Origin: a virus
Reading direction: 5' to 3' (one strand)
IMG/VR virus record: IMGVR_UViG_3300045970_000046
Location: 11,120-75,119 of that record
Length of the DNA: 64,000 nt
Shown piece after piece: positions 29,006 through 51,434 of the stretch (its first letter is position 1; each line of letters starts with the position of its first letter). The notes beneath the pieces were generated by a model. That model had not been told where the DNA came from, made no database searches, and saw nothing but the letters and a program-made list of their open reading frames with translations. A program made the position numbers and the translations under genes.

Positions 29006-30322
29006 TTAACCCGGGAGTAAACCAGGAAGCTGATTATTAATCAGGAAGTTCAAGGCGTCAATAGTAGCTTGGTCTGTAGTACCATTCAGGACTATAGCAG
29101 CGTATTCGCTAATAGCCTTACGTGTCTGGAAAACTTCCATTGTTGCCTGAATCGTAATATACTGCCCTATCTTACTTGCAACCTGAACACTCCCTGGAAG
29201 GAAACGAGCCGTACATTCAGAAGGAGTGGAAGAATCTAGTATTAGATCAACCTGGAACGGTAGAGAACAATCTCGAAGTCTACCGTAGAGTAACCAGAAA
29301 ATTTTATAGTCTGTGGGATTTAGCTTCCATTTAGCCGTTACAATAGACGAGGAATTTTGGATACCGGGACTATACCGACTTAGACCAATTCCATATTCGA
29401 TACTGATAACTTCGTCGTCTTTATCGGTAACGGTATATCCGTCCTGCAGTGGAACAAGGTATAGCTTCCGTGCCGGAGAATCCGTAGCTACTGAAGCATG
29501 ACCCGAAGCTGAACCACCTAGACCAACAGGCCCGTAGGTTCGAATATCGTCTTTAGTGGAAGCATGACCCGCGGCTGTACCTGTAAGGTCTACGGTACGA
29601 GATGTATGAGGTAAGGCCGTAGCTCCGGCATGACCTCCGGCGGTACCTCCCAAAGGAACAGGACCGGTAGTCTCTCCGGTTACATCCGCATGTCCGCCAG
29701 ACGTACCCCCTAGTAGAACGTCGGTCTGTAGCCCTGTGGCCACAGCACCCGCGTGACCAGAAGCTACCCCTGAAAGTGGAATACTGCTTGGGTTCGTCCC
29801 GAAATAACCGGTAGGTACAATTTGAATGGCAGCTGTACCTCCGTCTGTACCTACGAAGTGGATAGGTGCTAGTTTAAGTGAAACCGTTGAATTATCAGTG
29901 CTAGTAAACGAGAGTAATGTACCAGAGGTATCTAGTACATCGGCCGTAGCCGTTATATCTACTACTGTACTATGACCGGAGGCTGTACCGGATAGCCGTG
30001 TAGGTACAGTATACGAGAGTACGGACGTTAAAGCACCGCGACCACCAGCGGTACCGGCTAGTGAAGTAGGCCCTGTACTCGTCACACCGGCTGTTCCGGA
30101 ACCATGACCGGCAGACACACCACCTAATGACGTCGCTGTTGGAAGTTGAGTTGTTACCGTAGGACTAGATACAGTCGCCTGTCCGGAAGCGGTCCCGGAA
30201 AGCGGTATACGTATAGATTCTACCGTCACGTCATTAACAGTAATGGCTCCAGATCCGGGTACTACCCGTAAGGATAGAGTTGCATTACCTAGCGGTAACG
30301 TGAGGGTAGTTATAACCTTCAT
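29006..30322 (-). CDS. repeat stalk protein fused to a C-terminal Dit/gpM-like domain
   Basis: about nine xxL(S/G)G(T/V/S)(A/S)xGH repeats; C-terminal domain resembles ORF 37800-38162. Confidence 0.75.
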   Translation of the reverse strand: MKVITTLTLPLGNATLSLRVVPGSGAITVNDVTVESIRIPLSGTASGQATVSSPTVTTQLPTATSLGGVSAGHGSGTAGVTSTGPTSLAGTAGGRGALTSVLSYTVPTRLSGTASGHSTVVDITATADVLDTSGTLLSFTSTDNSTVSLKLAPIHFVGTDGGTAAIQIVPTGYFGTNPSSIPLSGVASGHAGAVATGLQTDVLLGGTSGGHADVTGETTGPVPLGGTAGGHAGATALPHTSRTVDLTGTAAGHASTKDDIRTYGPVGLGGSASGHASVATDSPARKLYLVPLQDGYTVTDKDDEVISIEYGIGLSRYSPGIQNSSSIVTAKWKLNPTDYKIFWLLYGRLRDCSLPFQVDLILDSSTPSECTARFLPGSVQVASKIGQYITIQATMEVFQTRKAISEYAAIVLNGTTDQATIDALNFLINNQLPGLLPG

Positions 30323-31941: not shown

Positions 31942-34354
31942 AAACTCCTCCTTCAATGTTACCGGAGATATCAATCCCGTAGAATTGTAGCTTTCCCGAC
32001 TGGGGCGTAAGCGGAGCAAGATACGTGCTCCACGCTCCAGAACCCCACCGGTACCTAATTGTTACAGGAGCATTCTCACTAACAGACGACAGTATGATAG
32101 TACCACGGGTGGCGGTAGGCCACGAAACCGTGGTAAGTGGAGCAGCAGCTGCAGAGGTGTGACCAATAACGTCGACATACTCCTGCTCGACGGTAAGCGT
32201 AGAGGTTCTAGCAACTAATTTTAGAAGATTCCCAGCTAGAAGTCCGGAGTTCAAAGGGATTAGCGAGTCCCATGTAGTTCTAGCCCCTCCTTGGTAAACC
32301 ATTGTAGATCCGGCCCATAATTCCAAGGAGGTAATAGGATCCGAAGAATAGGCTATGAGCTCTACATATATAGTTCCATGGAGATGAACGGTAGGAACCC
32401 CCGAGCTCCAAACTACAGCATCACTGATAAGAATGGGAATATACCGCCCCATGATATCTCTTTTAAAGAAATTGCAGTAAGGAAAGATATGTCCTGCAAA
32501 CTCCGGGACTAATGACAGCGCCTTGCTAACGGCCTTTCCTGCATTCCAAATACCCGGTAACTCAGGAAATAATGTTGTAAAATCTGGATTCTGAGGCTTA
32601 TCCCAAGTATCTTTAGCTATCTGACAGATCTGAAGCCCCGTTAAATCCATGTTAGCTGAACCGATTAGGGCACAAATTCCCACTGAAAAGGGGGTAGCAG
32701 AAGACGTACCGTTAAAATAGGTGTAGTCCACTAGAGCGTTGTTTGGATTAGAAGGAGTGAACCACTCGAAATCGCTATCTATAGCTCCGGACGTTGCGAT
32801 CCCAGTTCCAGCCTGGTGGTAGACAGAGGCTAGAATCTGATGTCCATGAGCCACCGCATTAACCTTAGGACCGTAATTTGAATAGCAAGCACGCTCGTCA
32901 AGCCGGGTGGTCTCTAGACATCCAACAGACAAAAATCCATATTCCTTACAAAGATTTCCGGGACTTCCCGACATGCCCGTAGAGTAATTACACGCGGCAA
33001 ATAGGGCTGCGTCGCCGCGATCTCGGAGCAGGTCGAATGTTGTCCTATACTCCGCCAATAATCCACCGGTAGAAGTGTACGCAGAGCCCCAGGAATTATT
33101 CGAAATTTTAGCCCCCAACAGGGAACCCATTATCAGGCCCTCTGTTAGAGCCACAATGGTGACATAAGTTTCTCCCGGGGCTAGTTCCGTCCGCCAAGAG
33201 AAACCATTACAGCTAAACAAGGAGCATTCAGGAGCGACGCCAACAGGCCCGGCCTTTAGAGGTGAGGATCCTACGTAGTCCGGTTTGTTAGCGTTAGCCA
33301 AAATGACACCGGAGCAGCAGGTCCCGTGAGTTGCGGATCCAGCCGAATTATCCGTGCTGGGCCCGAATACCCCCTTACCGGGATTAAAACGGATTACTTT
33401 CTTTCCGGCAAACGCAGGCCACTGCTCTGCCGCAGTTGGGTAAAGGGGGCCTCCAGGGACTCCTAGGGTCGGATCACTAGCGGGACCCGTAAATGTAGAG
33501 TTAATTATTAATCCAGAATCATTTACCGTGACTAAGAAATCCGGGTGCCCCATCGTATACTTCCACGCCGAAAAGACATCCGACCGTAAGTGAGAATACT
33601 GTCTGGGAAGAGCCGCATCGCTGGCCCCATGGTATTTGCGTTTGGAAGTTTGATAGTTAGGGAGCCTAACATTAGTCGTAGTAGCCGAAGCGTGGGCTGT
33701 ATCTACAGATGTTCTTGGCCCAGAGGAGGAAGCCCGCAGCGAAATATAACGGCCTTGTTTGGTACCTTCTACAGAAATTGTAGATGAGGGAACAGGCCCT
33801 GCACTCGGTTGCACCATACTCCATATACCTAACCCGTGGTTGAGTGCGTCAGGTCCTAACAAAATATCTGTAGATAGCGGAGGACCTACAGGCGTAGTCC
33901 ACCACGTACTCAGAGTATCATAGTCATAACTAAACTCGTAATTATGGGCTAATAACAGAACAAGGCTGTTCTGCCCTAAAGTCGTAATTGAAGGAACAAC
34001 TAGATCCGTGTATACAGTGATGTCGGGACTTGTGGCCGTAGCGAGCGAACCCACAACCTCTATCGGGGCTGTGGGATCACAATCTCTATAGGCCGCCATA
34101 ATAATATAGCCTGTACTATGGGCTATGTCGACGTTTTCATCAGTTAATACTTTGTAGCAAATAGCGAAGAAAGTTGAAGTTCCTCCCGCAGAATTTGAAG
34201 CTCCTGGGACTAGGGTCCAACCTGTAGGAGCCGAGCTAGTTCCGGTGATGAAGGCTATAACTACATCACCAGCTTCGAGACCCGAGGGTACACCTTCCTT
34301 AGTGGGATCATCCCCACGGTACTTCCCTGTACTTACAAGATATGGGATTCTCAT
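31928..34354 (-). CDS. S8 subtilisin-like serine protease with tail-protein N-domain
   Basis: VNDSG, HGTCCSG, GVAPE, NNSWG, AACN, GTSSATP. Confidence 0.9.
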   Translation of the reverse strand: MRIPYLVSTGKYRGDDPTKEGVPSGLEAGDVVIAFITGTSSAPTGWTLVPGASNSAGGTSTFFAICYKVLTDENVDIAHSTGYIIMAAYRDCDPTAPIEVVGSLATATSPDITVYTDLVVPSITTLGQNSLVLLLAHNYEFSYDYDTLSTWWTTPVGPPLSTDILLGPDALNHGLGIWSMVQPSAGPVPSSTISVEGTKQGRYISLRASSSGPRTSVDTAHASATTTNVRLPNYQTSKRKYHGASDAALPRQYSHLRSDVFSAWKYTMGHPDFLVTVNDSGLIINSTFTGPASDPTLGVPGGPLYPTAAEQWPAFAGKKVIRFNPGKGVFGPSTDNSAGSATHGTCCSGVILANANKPDYVGSSPLKAGPVGVAPECSLFSCNGFSWRTELAPGETYVTIVALTEGLIMGSLLGAKISNNSWGSAYTSTGGLLAEYRTTFDLLRDRGDAALFAACNYSTGMSGSPGNLCKEYGFLSVGCLETTRLDERACYSNYGPKVNAVAHGHQILASVYHQAGTGIATSGAIDSDFEWFTPSNPNNALVDYTYFNGTSSATPFSVGICALIGSANMDLTGLQICQIAKDTWDKPQNPDFTTLFPELPGIWNAGKAVSKALSLVPEFAGHIFPYCNFFKRDIMGRYIPILISDAVVWSSGVPTVHLHGTIYVELIAYSSDPITSLELWAGSTMVYQGGARTTWDSLIPLNSGLLAGNLLKLVARTSTLTVEQEYVDVIGHTSAAAAPLTTVSWPTATRGTIILSSVSENAPVTIRYRWGSGAWSTYLAPLTPQSGKLQFYGIDISGNIEGGVYDPV

Positions 34355-34752
34355 TAGGTGAACCGAAAAGACGGATTAGATACTCGTAAGATATCTCCAG
34401 TATCACTCATCAGCCTTGTCTTATGGCCTAGTTCTAAAATGGCGATTAAGGCTCCGGAGGTTCCGGAGGCAACCGTGACAAGTCCGATATACCGGATAGG
34501 TACGGCGGCTGTAAATCCAGTAAATTCAAAGTTCCCCGAGCACGTAAACTGGCCTGCAACAACAGTCATATTCAACTGTGGACAATTAATTCGAGAGTAT
34601 GTCCCAGTTACGGCAGTAACTTCCGCCATATTCGCCAACGTGGTAGTATCGGATCTATCCGTTAGAGCCGCTAAATAAATACCGCCCGGCAAGGACGCGA
34701 TAAGTGCAAGACTTAGGGCCTGAGAACCCTCGATAGGAATTACAACGGCCAT
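34354..34752 (-). CDS. fibre/appendage subunit, paralogue of 37200-37772 and 51051-51434
   Basis: YL.....AEVT..GTYSR...F......IGL....SG.LIA. Confidence 0.65.
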   Translation of the reverse strand: MAVVIPIEGSQALSLALIASLPGGIYLAALTDRSDTTTLANMAEVTAVTGTYSRINCPQLNMTVVAGQFTCSGNFEFTGFTAAVPIRYIGLVTVASGTSGALIAILELGHKTRLMSDTGDILRVSNPSFRFT

Positions 34753-35991: not shown

Positions 35992-36993
35992 CTATGTCCC
36001 CGTATCGTAAATAGTAACAGTTGATCCGGCCGCCGCGGTACCCGAGAACGTAACGGAGGCCGATGTAGTCTGACCAGCGGTCGGTGTTGCAAGTGTGTTC
36101 GAAACCGAACCACCTGAAATACTGACGGTTGAGGTTGCCCCCGCAATCCCAGCTCCGCTTCCCGCGATAGGCGCCGGAGCCCCCGTCTGGGTTCCGCTGC
36201 CACCAGAGCCAAGGCCTCCAGCCGAACCACCAAGAGATACTGTAGTAGCTGGTGCACTGGTAGTATCGGCCTGACCACCGGCAGCCCCGGAGAGGGCCGA
36301 GTCTACGATAACCGCACCGGCCGAATGTATCTCAATCGTCGCGTTAGGAACGACGACGCCGCTGAATGTAACCAAGGCCCCAACAGTAGACCCTTCAACC
36401 GGGAATTCCATAGACGCATCGGAGCCCGTCGATAGAGTCCCAAAAGATCCAGCCTGACCAGCGGCGGTACCACCCTGTGGACCAGAAGTTGCCGCGGTTC
36501 CCTGTCCACCGGCGTGCCCCACGGAGGTCCCAGAGAGAGGAACAACCTGAGACAACGGGGCCGTAGCACCGGCCCGACCACCAGCCGTAGCTTGTAACGG
36601 AGTTTGACCCGGTGTTGTTGTAGATATCGGACCTAGTTCGTTACCGTGGCCACCCGCTGTACCACCTAGGCCAGTAGAAACACCAAGAGCGGCGGTGGTT
36701 CCCCCTAAACCACCTGCCGCGCCTGTTGTTTTCCGTTCAGTGGATAGAATCCCACTTACATCTGCGTGACCCGACGTTGTTCCACCAGCTCCACCAGTGT
36801 CTAGTTGAGCACTAACGGTGGCCCTACCCGCAGCCGTTGCTTCTAGTATAAGTCCGAAGGGTAAAGGTGATTCCCAATAACCTGAACTGTTGGCCTGAAC
36901 AGGAGTAAGAGCCTGGCCGGCGACGGTAGGCGTCACAAAAGCGTTTGGAGTGGTTGAACCCCAAACCTTTACTCCACCAATCTGAACAGGCAC
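35992..36993 (-). CDS. Gly/Thr/Ala repeat protein with partial Ig domains
   Basis: about ten LxGT(A/S)xG(H/Q/R)A repeats; ends SGTAAAGSTVTIYD; GGAGG RBS with GTG start. Confidence 0.75.
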   Translation of the reverse strand: MPVQIGGVKVWGSTTPNAFVTPTVAGQALTPVQANSSGYWESPLPFGLILEATAAGRATVSAQLDTGGAGGTTSGHADVSGILSTERKTTGAAGGLGGTTAALGVSTGLGGTAGGHGNELGPISTTTPGQTPLQATAGGRAGATAPLSQVVPLSGTSVGHAGGQGTAATSGPQGGTAAGQAGSFGTLSTGSDASMEFPVEGSTVGALVTFSGVVVPNATIEIHSAGAVIVDSALSGAAGGQADTTSAPATTVSLGGSAGGLGSGGSGTQTGAPAPIAGSGAGIAGATSTVSISGGSVSNTLATPTAGQTTSASVTFSGTAAAGSTVTIYDTGT

Positions 36994-37199: not shown

Positions 37200-37772
37200 T
37201 TACTGCTCTGTAACGTGAAGCGCCCCTGCCGTAAACGACGCCGTCGAGTTCTGCGTAACGGCTACAGGGGCGTTATTCACAGCACCCCAGTAGAGTAGGT
37301 TACCGGCGGTAGCTGCATCGTAAATCCCAAAGCACTGAACGGACCACGAAGTACCGCTGCTGTTAGTCCAGGCGGCGCTACCGGAAATGGAACCGGCATT
37401 AACGTACTCGTCGGTATTCGTGTAGGTATTGCAGTTACCGGTACCGGAACCAGTGCAGCAGGTAAACGGCGCCTGGCTAGTGGTGCACGCACCGTTGGTC
37501 GCGTGTGTCCAACCGGTACCATTAGCGATAGCCGCCGAACGAGTAGTATATCCGGGTTGCGAACCGCTATTAAATTCAACTCCGGCGGTACCAGCCGCAG
37601 GGCACGTCGAGAATAACCCGACATAGGTATTGACCGGAGCCGAGAACGCCGTATTACCGAAAATCTCACCAAGCACCTTAGCCGAAAGATACGAATACTT
37701 CCCACCGGCCACGGCTAACAGCGGAAGAACTAGGGCGAGGGCAACAACTGCGAACTTCTTATTAAACTTCAT
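37200..37772 (-). CDS. fibre/appendage subunit with signal peptide and Cys-rich insert
   Basis: GAAGGAG RBS; MKFNKKFAVVALALVLPLLAVA; YVGLF...FGIYDAATAGNLLYWG..F.AGAL.V. Confidence 0.75.
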   Translation of the reverse strand: MKFNKKFAVVALALVLPLLAVAGGKYSYLSAKVLGEIFGNTAFSAPVNTYVGLFSTCPAAGTAGVEFNSGSQPGYTTRSAAIANGTGWTHATNGACTTSQAPFTCCTGSGTGNCNTYTNTDEYVNAGSISGSAAWTNSSGTSWSVQCFGIYDAATAGNLLYWGAVNNAPVAVTQNSTASFTAGALHVTEQ

Positions 37773-37799
37773 CGGATACTCCTTCAAGCGGTGGAACAG

Positions 37800-38162
37800 T
37801 TAGGAAACGATAGCTAAAGTAGCCTTAACAAGATACTGATCTCCGTGAATCTCCGCCAACTTCATCGTACCTTTTACGAATTGTACAGTATGCTCAGATA
37901 TTGTAGGATCGTCTACCAATAAATTGATCCGAAAAGCTGATGCCGTAAACTGGACTAACCTATAAAACGCACGAATATAATCGTATTCTTGAGCATTACA
38001 ATACCATGTAACGTCAATATGAGGCAATGTTTTATTTATAGGCTTAATTGAAGCCCTCCGGAATTTAGAGAAGCCTCCTTCAACAGCGAACTTTATTACA
38101 TCAGCCTCAAATGTAATCCTATAACCTGATTCTTCCGGTGTAAGGTCTAGGGCTATAGACAT
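37800..38162 (-). CDS. distal tail (Dit / gpM-like) protein
   Basis: directly after the tape measure; GY...GG.S.FRR...V.W...F.I.L. Confidence 0.7.
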   Translation of the reverse strand: MSIALDLTPEESGYRITFEADVIKFAVEGGFSKFRRASIKPINKTLPHIDVTWYCNAQEYDYIRAFYRLVQFTASAFRINLLVDDPTISEHTVQFVKGTMKLAEIHGDQYLVKATLAIVS

Positions 38163-47478: not shown

Positions 47479-47931
47479 TTATTTCACCTCTGAGTAGGAA
47501 AAACCGGCTTCCGCATTCATCTGAAACCAACCATTTTCTGGACCTATCTCTACGACGTGACAATTACGGAACCAGATGCCATTTGGTGAAGCCTTTCCTT
47601 CAAAGGCATCTTTGGCTATAGTAGCTAAACCTTCAGCAATTGTCAAACTTTTTCCGCTCCCTGATGGACCGAAACACTGCACATAAAGGATCCCTTGATA
47701 TTCGTAAAGTCGGCTACCAACCGGTCCTAACGCAACCTGCCTACCAGACGTATGAATCAGTAGAGCTTTCGCGTAGGGGATACCAGCCGGTGGAGTATTG
47801 GTATATTCTACACCCTGCCAGTAGATCTCGGGAGCAATAGATTGATGCGGTAGGTTAAACGGTGGGGCATATAGCTCCCAGTCTAACTTAAGCATCGTAA
47901 AGATTTCGTCACGGGCCTCAGCCGACGTCAT
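47479..47931 (-). CDS. tail terminator
   Basis: G.L.VQ.FGP.G.G, WFRN...EIG...GWFQ.N. Confidence 0.82.
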   Translation of the reverse strand: MTSAEARDEIFTMLKLDWELYAPPFNLPHQSIAPEIYWQGVEYTNTPPAGIPYAKALLIHTSGRQVALGPVGSRLYEYQGILYVQCFGPSGSGKSLTIAEGLATIAKDAFEGKASPNGIWFRNCHVVEIGPENGWFQMNAEAGFSYSEVK

Positions 47932-50081
47932 TGCCGTACCTGTAGAATATAGATAATAGCGTTACCGTCAGGGGCTACTTCCTGAATCGAAACAATAGTC
48001 CAAATAGATTCGGCCGATTCTCTAATCTGGGCTTGAATATTAGGTGTGGCCGTTAAACCCTGGGCCGCGATTAATAGGCGCTTTTCTTTGGTTGGTAGAA
48101 GTTCATTAAAATCAGGCTGCCTATAATCGGCTGCTCCACCGTCTTTATTCTTACGGGAAGTAAGCCAGACACCCTTCACAGTCTGACTCATCGTACCGAT
48201 ACTTTCGATACGCCAAGGCCTAGCGACTTCAGCTAGTTGATCTACAAAGACAACGAGCTCGATATTGGCCCCAAATTTCGCGATAAGGCGTTTAGCTGTC
48301 TGCATAGCCTTTTCTATTACTTCACTAGGTATCTGAAGATAACCGAGGTGCGGCGCGGTTCCGCTGGCTGTAGATAGTAGACTTAGGCTTACAAGATCAT
48401 AAGCTAAACCTACTACAGAACGTTCACCGGTAGCCGCTGCAACACTAGAAGCTAAACCTAGTATAACATCGCCTGTTACATCGCGTAACCCTTCTAATAC
48501 ACCATATGTTGAAGCTGAAGTTATTCCCTCAGCTGGGCCTAAAGCTTCTATAGTTTCCGTACCGGTTAGTAGTCCTAGGGCTGATCCCGACGCTATACCT
48601 AAGACTTCACCGCTTACATTACGTACTCCCAGTACGAGAGTACAAGCGGAACCCTCCGAGATACCACTAGGCGTACCAGATACACTTCTATACCCACTTA
48701 AGCTAGTAGTTCCAGAACTTGAAACTAAAGAAGATACACTAGTGGATATACTTCTCGTACCTACTAGAGTTAGGGCTGTAGTAGATACAAGACTAGAAGC
48801 CGTTCCCGGTACCGCCCTACTCGCAAGAGGTATACCGAGTGTAGAGGAGGACGTAGTAGCTAGACCCGAGCCAGATCTTACCTCTAGACTGTAGGAACTA
48901 CCTGTAGCAGCCCCTACACTTGATGTAGAAACTAAGCCCGGGACTACCGCTGTGATCGCTCTAGTACCCGTAGAACCGGATAAGACCGACACCGAGGTAA
49001 CTGTGGCCACAGAGCTTACGTTTCGAGCTCCAGTGCCGGTACCTAAAGCGGATGTAGAAGTTACGCTACCGACCGTGGTTGTTAAGGAACGTGAGCCAGT
49101 CGATGTAAGGGTAGAGGTAGAAGTAAGAGTAGCTACCGCGGAGCTGACCGAGCGTGTGCCTGTAGCTACTGAAATAGCTGATGTAGACGGATAGGTAAGT
49201 GTATCCGTGATATTACGTGAACCTGTACCGGTACCTATGCTCGATGTAGAACTTATACTTCCGGCCGTGGTTGTTATTCCACGAGTACCAGTGCTAACCT
49301 CAGTGCTAGTAGAGGAGATACTACCGGCTGTAGTGACTATGGCCCTTGTGCCGGTTGGTGCACCTAGGCTAGATACAGAACTACATGCCAAACCCGTACC
49401 AGAAGCAGCCACAGAGGCGGATCCGGTAGCTATACCAAGGGCTGAGGTAGATTGTACGCTAGCGGGCGTCGCCGTTACAGCCCGCGTACCTGTAGAGGCT
49501 GTAATAGTCGAACTAGAACTGAGACTAGTAGAACTAGCTACATCACGGGAGCCTGTAGAGTTACCCGCCGTCGATGACGACGACGTAGCCAGTGCTGTAT
49601 TAGTCCCCTGCCGTGTATTGGTAGTAGAACCTAGAACAGAAGTAGAAGAGAGTCCACCGGCGGTAGAACTAATACTACGAGAACCTGTACTAGAACCGAG
49701 GGACGAAGAAGAAGAGACATCTACCCCAGTTCCACTTCTAGATTCGCTAACGGTAGCGAAACCGGTAGAGACTGAATAGGCGCTAGACGATGTAAGAGCG
49801 CCAGCCGCTACAGATACAGCTCTAGCCCCGGTAGAATTATTAAGAGCGGAACTAGAGCTTGCGGTAGAGCCTGTACCTGTAGCATTACGGGAACCAGTAG
49901 AAGAACCTAAAGCGGAAGTTGAAGAGATCCCACTAGGTACAGAGCTAACACTACGTGTGCCGGTACTAGTACCGATGGTCGATGTAGACGAAGTGTCTAC
50001 CCCGGTACCACTTCGGGCTTCACCCGTAGCTCCAGCGTCGAAAACGCCGGTGTCGAAGATATTAGGGTCGAAGACCGCCAC
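47928..50081 (-). CDS. head-closure protein with a ~560-aa Ser/Thr repeat extension
   Basis: C-terminal TAKRLIAKFG...PDG..I.Y.LQVR; N-terminal FDxxxFDxxxFD, then TG(T/S)R repeats. Confidence 0.78.
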   Translation of the reverse strand: MAVFDPNIFDTGVFDAGATGEARSGTGVDTSSTSTIGTSTGTRSVSSVPSGISSTSALGSSTGSRNATGTGSTASSSSALNNSTGARAVSVAAGALTSSSAYSVSTGFATVSESRSGTGVDVSSSSSLGSSTGSRSISSTAGGLSSTSVLGSTTNTRQGTNTALATSSSSTAGNSTGSRDVASSTSLSSSSTITASTGTRAVTATPASVQSTSALGIATGSASVAASGTGLACSSVSSLGAPTGTRAIVTTAGSISSTSTEVSTGTRGITTTAGSISSTSSIGTGTGSRNITDTLTYPSTSAISVATGTRSVSSAVATLTSTSTLTSTGSRSLTTTVGSVTSTSALGTGTGARNVSSVATVTSVSVLSGSTGTRAITAVVPGLVSTSSVGAATGSSYSLEVRSGSGLATTSSSTLGIPLASRAVPGTASSLVSTTALTLVGTRSISTSVSSLVSSSGTTSLSGYRSVSGTPSGISEGSACTLVLGVRNVSGEVLGIASGSALGLLTGTETIEALGPAEGITSASTYGVLEGLRDVTGDVILGLASSVAAATGERSVVGLAYDLVSLSLLSTASGTAPHLGYLQIPSEVIEKAMQTAKRLIAKFGANIELVVFVDQLAEVARPWRIESIGTMSQTVKGVWLTSRKNKDGGAADYRQPDFNELLPTKEKRLLIAAQGLTATPNIQAQIRESAESIWTIVSIQEVAPDGNAIIYILQVRQ
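48360..50020 (-). repeat. ~21-22-aa Ser/Thr-rich protein repeats
   Basis: recurring SSTS.LG..TG(T/S)R(S/A/N)(V/I) units. Confidence 0.85.
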
Positions 50082-50101
50082 GGGCTAACCCCCTAGAACG
50101 G

Positions 50102-51037
50102 TCAGAAATCGCTTTCGACGTACAACCGAACCATAGCCATATTATGAGCTGCGGCTAGTGCACCGTTACGGACTTGAAAGCGAGGTCCGAGTAATGTCGT
50201 AGCCGCCGGGACGTTAGTCGTATAGCTAGTGTTGAGCAGGTCCGTTCCAACACCGCTGTTAGCGATCTGCTGCACGCGCACGAACAACTCCGTAGTGCCC
50301 GGCTTCACATACATCGTCAGGTCGAAGACTTGTTCGGCAGCCGCAGCTACCAACGCGGAAGACCGGGTTGCAGCCGCCGTACCGGCGCGGACGCAGAAGT
50401 ACCAAGAAGCGTCCGCGGCGTTTAGGTGCATTCCACAGAAGTCGTTGATTGTGCTGGAGGGGTCACCGGCCAGAGCAACGATGGTGCTACCCACCCCCAC
50501 GCACTTCTGGACCCCTGTAGTGTGGAGCGTGCCCTGCGTGAAGCGGCAGTAGAAGAACCAGCCGCCGGGGGTGTTGGCGCTGCCACCAAACATCGAGGCA
50601 CGAGGGGCCCACGCCCCTGCTGCGTTACCTGCCGTGGTGCTAGTAGCGAACTGTACCTTGTCGAGCGACGTACTCAGGTTCGTCAGAGCATTGGTGGGGT
50701 GCGAGAGCGTAGCGCCCGTGGTAGGCGTCATACCCTGCGAACCCATAGCGGTGGCCGTACCCGGCCCCCAAAGAATGACGCGATTCGTAAATAGCGACGT
50801 CTGGAGCATCGAATCTACTCCAGAGGGACCCTTAATCTTCGGCATAGCCCGGCCGGCGATAAGCTTAGCGTATAGGCTCATCTTACCGGCGGCCGGTGTA
50901 GCCGGGTCGGTGGTACCCGCGGTCATTAAGATACCATCGGCGTCTGGAACGTGGTCAGCGTTCCATTCGTCTTTACTAGCCACAGTACCGTCGGCGCCCT
51001 GTGCCTTGGCGCTAACGAAGGTATGCTTGAGCGCCAT
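50102..51037 (-). CDS. virion appendage tip-like protein
   Basis: KH.FVS......WNADH N-terminus; beta-sandwich C-terminus. Confidence 0.6.
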   Translation of the reverse strand: MALKHTFVSAKAQGADGTVASKDEWNADHVPDADGILMTAGTTDPATPAAGKMSLYAKLIAGRAMPKIKGPSGVDSMLQTSLFTNRVILWGPGTATAMGSQGMTPTTGATLSHPTNALTNLSTSLDKVQFATSTTAGNAAGAWAPRASMFGGSANTPGGWFFYCRFTQGTLHTTGVQKCVGVGSTIVALAGDPSSTINDFCGMHLNAADASWYFCVRAGTAAATRSSALVAAAAEQVFDLTMYVKPGTTELFVRVQQIANSGVGTDLLNTSYTTNVPAATTLLGPRFQVRNGALAAAHNMAMVRLYVESDF

Positions 51038-51050
51038 GTTTAAGCCGGAC

Positions 51051-51434
51051 TTACGTGATGGAGATAGTTAGGGCGCTGACCGTGTAAGTGCCGTTAGAGC
51101 CGTAAGCACCTTCAGCCGCCGAAAGAGCTCCAGAGCCACAGAAGTCGGCGGCTACACCAGCCGCAGCGATACGCCACAGGCCGTAATGACTGAAGGCGTC
51201 ACCGGCCTGGACGGAGATAACGGCACTTGCCCCAAGACCCTTGCTACCAGCCGCAGCCGCAGCCATATTTAACTGGACGCGGGCATACGGGGCTCCGGAC
51301 ATCTCGTTAGCCGACGCTGTCGCGAACACACCGGCCGGATCGGCACTGTGTAACGAGATATAGGTACCGGAGGAAGCACCCGTACCATAGCGCTGATCGA
51401 GTTCGTAGTTACGGGCATCTACTGACTGGGGCAT
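51051..51434 (-). CDS. fibre/appendage subunit
   Basis: YISLHSADP...ANE.SG..YAR, HYGLW, GTYTV..LTI. Confidence 0.7.
   Translation of the reverse strand: MPQSVDARNYELDQRYGTGASSGTYISLHSADPAGVFATASANEMSGAPYARVQLNMAAAAAGSKGLGASAVISVQAGDAFSHYGLWRIAAAGVAADFCGSGALSAAEGAYGSNGTYTVSALTISIT

Follow-up and report, generated by a model that had tools for sequence, protein, structure and literature searches.

We analysed a 64,000-nucleotide stretch of viral DNA (bases 11120-75119 of the 75,119-bp IMG/VR record IMGVR_UViG_3300045970_000046, which is rated complete; hereafter, the window). Our subject is three adjacent genes in its structural region, which encode proteins of 127, 311, and 717 amino acids. 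On the minus strand, the structural genes run in the order portal, scaffold, and major capsid protein, two small open reading frames (ORFs), the head-tail adaptor Ad1, the three genes in question, the tail terminator, then the tail tube, chaperone, and tail completion proteins, and finally the 2126-residue tape measure protein. The 127-residue protein resembles the beads of known phage whiskers, the 311-residue protein has a predicted lectin fold, and the 717-residue protein consists of a long repeat region, which we will call the rope, followed by a head-closure (Hc1) domain. Going by the genes alone, we think that the three together probably build beads-on-a-rope whiskers that are anchored directly in the neck of an uncultured siphophage. 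This reading stems from the fusion of the rope to a core neck protein and from the adjoining bead gene.

An original prediction, made from the DNA letters, had placed three genes between the adaptor and the tail terminator (a fibre-subunit paralogue, a tip-like protein, and a head-closure domain behind a repeat stalk) and had read them as an appendage module on the neck. The genes and their order agree with the ORF map and with the profile matches (Table 1). The module does look like an appendage cassette, given the homology of the bead fold, the homology of the rope, and the position of the genes.

An Hc1 domain behind a long N-terminal extension

By its profile match and its position between Ad1 and the tail terminator, we assign the C-terminal domain of the 717-residue protein to the Hc1 type (SPP1 gp16, lambda gpFII, or 80alpha gp50). 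A head-closure domain at this end, behind the repeats, had been predicted, and the match to phrog_161 confirms it, with 111 of the 120 profile positions covered. (We found no Pfam family for the domain, and its profile had no match among PDB sequences.) In 80alpha, gp50 forms a hexamer below the dodecameric adaptor, and a table in that study equates it with lambda gpFII, SPP1 gp16, and HK97 gp7 (PMC11661146).

The closest isolated relatives by Hc1, as found with tblastn, are YuA/M6-like Pseudomonas phages and the Bordetella phages CN2, MW2, and FP1. Their Hc1 is a stand-alone protein of ~119 amino acids and is adjoined by a RefSeq-annotated tail terminator gene. Thus, the extra content here is two small genes and the 590 N-terminal residues of a third. 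A DNA-level search of isolated phages gave a single 51-nucleotide match, in the adaptor, and nothing more; scans of IMG/VR with the 717-residue and with the 311-residue protein gave no relatives.

Several features suggest that the entire 717-residue protein is made. Its reading frame has no stop codons, as compared to 6-80 in the other five frames, and the best codon-usage score of the six. The GTG start codon lies 7 nucleotides downstream of a Shine-Dalgarno (SD) sequence, AGGGGG. (At its 3' end, the gene overlaps the tail terminator gene, the stop of one and the ATG of the other forming ATGA at 47928-47934, which suggests translational coupling.) However, a public protein collection records this gene only as 47931-48305, which encodes a 125-residue Hc1 protein that begins at the internal Met593 (P0039). 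If Hc1 were made only, or also, in this recorded form, then the ring would bear few ropes or none, and a mixed ring would relieve crowding. We consider this extremely unlikely. The frame is open for 592 codons upstream of Met593; Met593 has just a weak AAGG at 2 nucleotides, versus AGGGGG at 7 nucleotides for the GTG at 50081; and there are four further fused homologues (see below). We rejected internal initiation at Met593 because of its weak SD sequence, and we take the long form to be the product.

Public gene calls can trim such proteins to the known domain, which hides the appendage. The 590-residue rope is absent from the annotation here, and further rope fusions may be hidden likewise by truncated gene calls. 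(The plus strand opposite the repeats, at 48403-49779, contains spurious long ORFs of 163-194 amino acids from stop to stop, and one plus-strand frame across the repeat region has only 6 stops. These ORFs result from the Ser/Thr/Gly codon bias of the repeats and could mislead gene callers.)

Table 1. The neck cassette, its borders, and the tape measure protein. Positions are those of the window.
Feature	Position	Strand	Evidence or remark
Head-tail adaptor Ad1, 277 amino acids	51443-52276	-	phrog_477 E 1e-44; Pfam DnaT_2 E 1e-42; upstream module border
Putative bead / whisker subunit, 127 amino acids	51051-51434	-	Gp80 / Bas63-gp5 fold; Pfam Gp80 (PF23140) below cut-off; phrog_240 E 1e-13
311-residue protein, predicted ConA-like lectin jelly-roll	50102-51037	-	AlphaFold2 model and structure matches
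Whole rope-Hc1 gene, 717 amino acids	47928-50081	-	GTG start at 50081
N-terminal triple pentad, residues 4-16 of the 717-residue protein	50034-50072	-	Regular-expression scan
Rope, 25 tandem repeats, residues 22-575 of the 717-residue protein	48357-50018	-	Repeat profile, self-identity, BLASTP
Hc1 head-closure domain, residues 594-717	47931-48302	-	phrog_161 E 3e-11
Tail terminator, 150 amino acids	47479-47931	-	phrog_179 E 2e-23; downstream module border
Tape measure protein, 2126 amino acids	38162-44542	-	ORF map

The rope and its putative beads

The first 590 residues of the 717-residue protein are 24% Ser, 17% Thr, and 13% Gly. Self-identity within this region is maximal at lags of 22, 43, and 64-65 residues. 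At lag 22 it is 0.234, which corresponds to z ~10 (in 2000 shuffled sequences, the highest value over all lags had a mean of 0.167 and a standard deviation of 0.007). Laid out by hand, the region forms 25 units of 21-22 amino acids, with Ser11, Ser13, and Gly20 almost invariant. A common ending for a unit is T-G-[ST]-R, and 20 of the 25 have the terminal Arg. A hidden Markov model (HMM) built from the units found 25 domains in the 717-residue ORF and nothing else significant among the window's six-frame ORFs. The hand layout, this profile, and the lag-22 peak all agree with the roughly 25 Ser/Thr repeats of ~21-22 amino acids that had been noticed at first.

The repeats are conserved as protein and not as DNA. 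Tandem Repeats Finder reported no DNA-level tandem repeat in the region, and the conserved residues are encoded by mixed codons (both CGN and AGR for Arg, mostly varied TCN for Ser, and all four GGN for Gly). This spread of synonymous codons, along with the lack of a DNA repeat, implies that the periodicity is maintained at the protein level.

The repeat region also has relatives. By BLASTP, rope residues 21-159 align without gaps to the 259-residue rope of another locus, L043 (35% identity over 139 amino acids, E = 3e-15), and the alignment spans an irregular joint, 'GFA...R-SGTG'. With phmmer against the whole library, we found two proteins (P0070 and P0087) with the same type of 22-residue rope as the 717-residue protein and without Hc1. 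(The local repeat HMM did not score the other ropes after composition correction; BLASTP and phmmer did score ropes.) Judging from its period and its sequence homology, the repeat region belongs to the rope class.

The original prediction described the repeats as a tape measure. This is apt insofar as bead number, and with it fibre length, would depend on the repeats, but the rope would be a permanent thread inside the fibre, which is unlike a tape measure protein. Such a protein is helical, lies inside the tube, sets its length, and leaves on ejection. We rejected that identity for the repeats because they are rich in Ser, Thr, and Gly, are homologous to ropes, and are fused to an external ring protein, and because the real tape measure protein is encoded elsewhere (Table 1).

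We turn to the bead. The 127-residue protein scores 23.9 and 22.4 bits against Pfam's Gp80 family (PF23140, 'podophage GP4 fiber I protein'), whose gathering cut-off is 27. It has 37 metagenomic homologues, and many of those that are 54-70% identical to it already carry PF23140.2. A bead profile matches gp25 of phage Cimandef, which is 96% identical to GP4 gp80, with E = 3.6e-4. Compared to PDB by sequence, the 127-residue protein has a best E of only 0.55-0.76.

The predicted structure is more informative. An AlphaFold2 model built with 30 homologues has a predicted local distance difference test (pLDDT) score of 82 and a predicted template modelling (pTM) score of 0.74. It comprises an N-terminal helix, a small sheet, and an incomplete beta-sandwich, which agrees with the published description of the whiskers. 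Using VIA-align, we found that the model matches a whisker chain of Bas63 (9mt4_K) across 107/107 residues (Z = 13.9, root-mean-square deviation 1.8 Å, 26% identity) and a neck chain of Sf14 (9c39_K) with Z = 13.6. The next match is GP4 gp80 (8jou_a, Z = 7.0), and all others have Z <=6.6. (In Foldseek, the model reached E = 7e-7.) On the evidence of this model, the 127-residue protein is clearly a structural homologue of the Bas63 and Sf14 whisker bead, and GP4 gp80 is more distant.

It had been called a fibre-subunit paralogue at first. At the level of the family, it is related to a 195-residue subunit encoded near the tail tip (37200-37787), but a pairwise BLASTP comparison of the two is not significant. 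For a 132-residue ORF (34354-34752), we considered and rejected a detectable relationship to the bead family. As for annotation, homologues of the GP4-type gp80 are found in 273 phage records, 197 of them from Mycobacterium phages, and are mostly labelled 'head protein' or 'hypothetical protein'.

Could the 127-residue protein be a capsid decoration instead, with the Ser/Thr repeats as a disordered, perhaps glycosylated, spacer that has nothing to do with it? The PHROG label of phrog_240 is 'head protein', and the composition of the repeats (41% Ser+Thr) is mucin-like. Nevertheless, we think this is very unlikely. The best structural matches of the bead model are, by far, neck whisker beads, and not decoration proteins. 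The repeats retain periodic hydrophobic, Gly, and Arg positions, and they are homologous to ropes encoded beside bead genes. Finally, bead and rope co-occur across loci.

Specifically, every bead locus with sufficient flanking sequence has a rope ORF. At six loci (L004, L005, L007, L010, L041, and L043), an ORF with repeats of 20-22 amino acids lies within a few kb. In L043, 1.1 kb separates the rope gene from an upstream bead gene with 61% identity to the one studied here, an arrangement shared by L004, L007, L010, and L041. The bead genes beside these stand-alone ropes are 60-62% identical to the 127-residue protein. At L005, the gene directly after the bead gene (34% identical) encodes a protein with a globular N-terminal domain and 20-residue repeats. 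Among 21 IMG/VR loci with a plain Hc1 (106-141 amino acids), none had a bead match (0/21). Because podophage-like contigs encode the same type of rope as a free gene along with a 60-62%-identical bead, the cassette seems to be mobile between tail types as a module.

Three of the stand-alone ropes (L043:11467-12246, L010:7063-7596, and L004:10211-10981), all on podophage-like contigs, have about 6-10 repeats and a short Pro-/aromatic-rich tail. This tail may be an anchor peptide. (At L043, the rope gene is followed by the gene for a 1027-residue protein.)

Ropes are also found fused to Hc1 in other proteins. A filter-only HMMER search among 1.8 billion representative proteins gave 50 matches. 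Most of these are stand-alone Hc1 proteins (40+ have 112-139 amino acids), and four are fusions. P0040 (418 amino acids) and P0044 (412 amino acids) have ~13-15 N-terminal repeats of 18-20 amino acids, followed by Hc1. P0058 (631 amino acids) has a globular N-terminal domain, ~14 repeats, and Hc1, and P0050 (1034 amino acids) has a BNR/sortilin-Vps10-type propeller of 700 residues, ~10 repeats, and Hc1. (In P0050, a glycan-binding or glycosidase-like head would hang off the neck ring.) No fused Hc1 forms of 394-1255 amino acids came up in a word-based search. As far as these matches indicate, the fusion of a rope to Hc1 recurs but is rare. The fusions vary in their repeats and in their ends, which suggests that the number of repeats is evolutionarily free and that the far end of the rope often has a binding-type domain.

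The lectin-fold protein and the free end of the rope

The AlphaFold2 model of the 311-residue protein (pLDDT 87, pTM 0.82) has a jelly-roll at residues ~50-311 behind a conserved N-terminal segment of ~45 residues. Its matches include SO2946 (2a5z_C; Z = 16.4 over 220 residues, Foldseek E = 1.6e-7) and, with Z of 14-16, the carbohydrate recognition domain of ERGIC-53, GH16 glucanases, and legume lectins. In BFVD, the model matches the C-terminal ends of phage tail-repeat, Mtd-N, and collagen-repeat proteins. There are 70 homologues of 246-532 amino acids, which have the C-terminal ~270 residues in common, and the longer ones have fibre-like N-terminal parts. According to the model, this is a member of the ConA-like lectin/glucanase superfamily with an SO2946-like C-terminal domain.

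We rejected the idea that the 311-residue protein is a GH16 enzyme, as its translation contains no ExDxxE-type catalytic motif. Since the sandwich also has few acidic residues, we read the protein as a binding module. To describe it as 'tip-like', as was done originally, was fair: the BFVD and structure matches point to a lectin fold that is typical of the ends of viral fibres. It is a candidate for the distal or sugar-binding part of the appendage, and a role at the tip is plausible.

The initiation signals of the genes are consistent with different copy numbers. The bead gene has a strong, canonical SD sequence (AGGAG) 5 nucleotides before its ATG, and we found no clear SD sequence for the 311-residue gene. 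Such a difference would suit a bead that is made in many copies and an accessory protein that is made in few.

The free end of the rope has a motif of its own. Residues 4-16 of the 717-residue protein, VFDPNIFDTGVFD, form a triple pentad, VFDPN-IFDTG-VFD (the FD motif). In a regular-expression scan of all the sequences that we compared, the one other sequence with such pentads was P0044, which has AFQTN-AFQGN-AFE at the corresponding position. Their recurrence in the same place in an independent Hc1-rope fusion points to a functional role at the rope's free end. By analogy with other phages, the FD motif could bind to a tip protein, to the tail, or to the capsid, which GP4 fibre I and the up-whiskers of Bas63 contact.

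The mechanism first proposed was that the FD pentads dock a trimer of the 311-residue protein, which would give a lectin-tipped fibre. We view this as possible but doubtful. In its favour, the motif is kept from residues 4-5 in the two independent fusions and nowhere else among the sequences compared; the 311-residue gene sits between the bead gene and the rope gene; and many viral fibre proteins finish, at their C-terminus, in a domain with the fold of its product. Also, other ropes bear a covalently fused N-terminal globular domain, and the neck fibres of A-1(L) terminate in a carbohydrate-binding bead (PMC10966104). But the 311-residue family does not accompany beads at other loci, and when its profile was compared with that of the domain fused at the N-terminus of P0070, no relation emerged. 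(We rejected a relationship between the 311-residue protein and the globular N-terminal domains of other ropes, with an hhalign probability of 0.1% for P0070.) Moreover, the 311-residue protein could attach elsewhere, such as to the capsid or to the enlarged adaptor. The best profile match of Ad1 is to residues 148-269, and ~145 residues lie outside this core match. These extra residues could dock the whiskers or the 311-residue protein; compare the beta-dock domain of podophage adaptors.

Proposed assembly and known fibres

We propose that the Hc1 domain sits, as usual, in a ring with Ad1 on one side and the tail terminator on the other. The 575-residue N-terminal extension would then exit the ring as an unfolded rope with 25 docking repeats. 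By analogy to solved fibres, bead dimers would clamp the rope by beta-strand augmentation, with about one dimer per repeat of 21-22 residues, and a strand of the rope would complete the incomplete beta-sandwich of each bead. As the Hc1-type ring is hexameric in solved relatives (80alpha), six ropes are expected. (We rejected twelve ropes per virion because Hc1-type rings are hexamers; PMC11661146.) There would be up to six fibres, each with at most 25 dimers and ~70 nm long (~68 nm at 27 Å per dimer, a value from A1002), and ~300 beads per virion. The number of repeats would set the length of the fibre, and the natural Hc1 fusions, of 412 to 1034 amino acids, provide a ready series for relating the two. 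With the essential head-closure ring as its fusion partner, the rope would have both its copy number and its attachment point fixed by a well-understood structure. The 311-residue protein probably belongs to the appendage as an accessory present in few copies, and the simplest role for it is that of a sugar-binding piece at the end. As for its role, the appendage may bind host surface glycans weakly and reversibly, or may brace the head against the tail.

Several observations count against this proposal. The public gene call starts Hc1 at Met593, without the rope. The bead protein is under the Pfam gathering cut-off (23.9 and 22.4 bits versus 27), and neither the repeat-unit profile nor the whole 717-residue protein has a sequence match among PDB chains. 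The 311-residue family is absent from podophage-type bead loci, so it is not an obligate partner of the beads. Last, a candidate rope in Cimandef has ~11 repeats, versus 5 dimers in the structure of GP4. If this is indeed a rope, then each repeat may bind one monomer, and our estimates of dimers, length, and beads would be halved. (The candidate is gp24 of this Ralstonia phage, L016:5415-6392, a 'virion structural protein' of 325 amino acids. It has repeats of 18-22 amino acids, lies next to the gp80 homologue, and looks like a GP4-type rope; it has no sequence match in PDB.)

Beads and rope might also assemble as we propose but serve as a brace along the capsid or the proximal tail, with the FD motif docking to capsid or tail instead of to the 311-residue protein. 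There are precedents. In Bas63, up-whiskers contact the capsid and down-whiskers contact the sheath and the terminator, and the authors propose an anchoring role (PMC12609058). Fibre I of GP4 runs upward and docks on the capsid, and the fibres of A1002 wrap the tail tube (PMC13730344). In this phage, the large tail tube protein (505 amino acids), with its extra domains, could provide docking sites. Nevertheless, we think that a brace is unlikely: 25 repeats far exceed what a brace that spans the neck would need; the ends of related ropes look suited to binding, being formed by a BNR/sortilin-type propeller or some other globular domain; and a lectin-fold gene lies inside the cassette.

Besides the neck cassette, the window has a second set of appendage genes at the tail tip (29006-30322, 35992-36993, 37200-37787, and 37800-38162). 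The 195-residue protein (37200-37787) is above Pfam's cut-off for Gp80, with 62.6 bits, and has an N-terminal segment like a signal peptide. A 438-residue protein of this set has a period of 22 amino acids N-terminal to its C-terminal phrog_384 domain, and a 120-residue protein beside the tape measure gene also matches phrog_384.

Taken together with the neck whiskers, these genes allow a joint reading that we regard as speculative, with the odds well against it. The virion would have two orthogonal beads-on-rope systems, with the rope repeats as an address code that directs each bead paralogue to its assembly site. The neck system would combine the 127-residue bead with a Ser/Thr 'TG[ST]R' rope on Hc1, and the tail-tip system would combine the signal-peptide-bearing Gp80 bead with a 'GGTAGGHA'-type rope on a Dit-like domain. 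The neck ropes, with ~25 dimers and ~70 nm, would be the longest known and would be tipped, via the three FD pentads, with lectin trimers encoded by a separate gene.

Cryo-electron microscopy has, to our knowledge, shown beads-on-a-rope fibres in very few phages, all of them podophages or Felix-like myophages. The logic that was originally proposed for the module, of a subunit plus a repeat stalk that is fused N-terminally to a core ring protein, is an architecture that has been solved in Bas63/Sf14 and in A1002. In Bas63, the rope that carries the bead dimers is the N-terminal part of an Ig-like collar protein at the neck, and the structural module of FelixO1 is almost 100% conserved in DNA with that of Bas63 (PMC12609058). 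The FelixO1 collar is ORF54 (with the published Cys52, Cys69, and Cys90), in which the rope is at most the first ~45 residues, for 2 dimers. GP4, VP1, and A1002 have 'chain-like' fibres of dimers of a small protein on a 'rope'; in A1002, the rope is fused N-terminally to the nozzle and holds 11 dimers over ~268 residues, or 300 Å per 11 dimers (PMC13730344). In both Bas63/FelixO1 and A1002, about 22-24 residues of rope are used per dimer, which equals the repeat period here.

The neck cassette is like that of the Felixounavirus myophages Bas63 and Sf14 (9mt4, 9c39) in its bead fold, its site at the neck, its rope as an N-terminal extension of a ring protein, and its ~22 residues per dimer. There, however, the anchor is a separate Ig-like collar 12-mer that is disulfide-linked to the adaptor, the rope has ~45 residues and 2 dimers, and the tail is contractile. 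Here, the anchor would be the essential Hc1 ring, the 25 repeats span ~555 residues, the cassette has no collar gene, and the tail is non-contractile. Fibre I of the Ralstonia phage GP4 (8jou; gp80 dimers, rope, and gp77 fibre-tail adaptor; Zheng et al. 2023 J Mol Biol, as cited in other papers) is similar in its bead family (Gp80) and in its chain of dimers on a rope. It differs in having a weaker fold match (Z = 7.0), a rope that is a separate protein, a 15-mer Ig-like ring, and five fibres of five dimers each, and in belonging to a podophage.

The Pseudomonas podophage A1002 (gp39 nozzle-rope, gp40/gp41 dimers; PMC13730344) also has a rope that is N-terminal to a core hexameric tail protein and many tandem dimers (11, at ~24 residues per dimer). 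But its anchor is half of a split nozzle, it has two bead proteins, an Ig-like domain ends its rope, and its fibre wraps the tail tube. A working analogue is the Anabaena myophage A-1(L) (gp82-gp81-gp80; PMC10966104), whose beaded neck fibres (~100 nm) start from an anchor, continue as a series of repeated beads, and finish in a bead that binds carbohydrate; a single small operon encodes all of these parts. Its beads are trimers that are joined head to tail without a rope, the proteins are unrelated, and five fibres sit on a 15-mer. With 25 repeats, versus 2, 5, and 11 dimers in the solved cases, the rope in the window is the longest in this comparison. Overall, a few solved phages share this design, and what appears to be new here is an Hc1 ring as the anchor without an Ig-like collar, a siphophage virion, a far longer rope, and an embedded lectin-fold gene.

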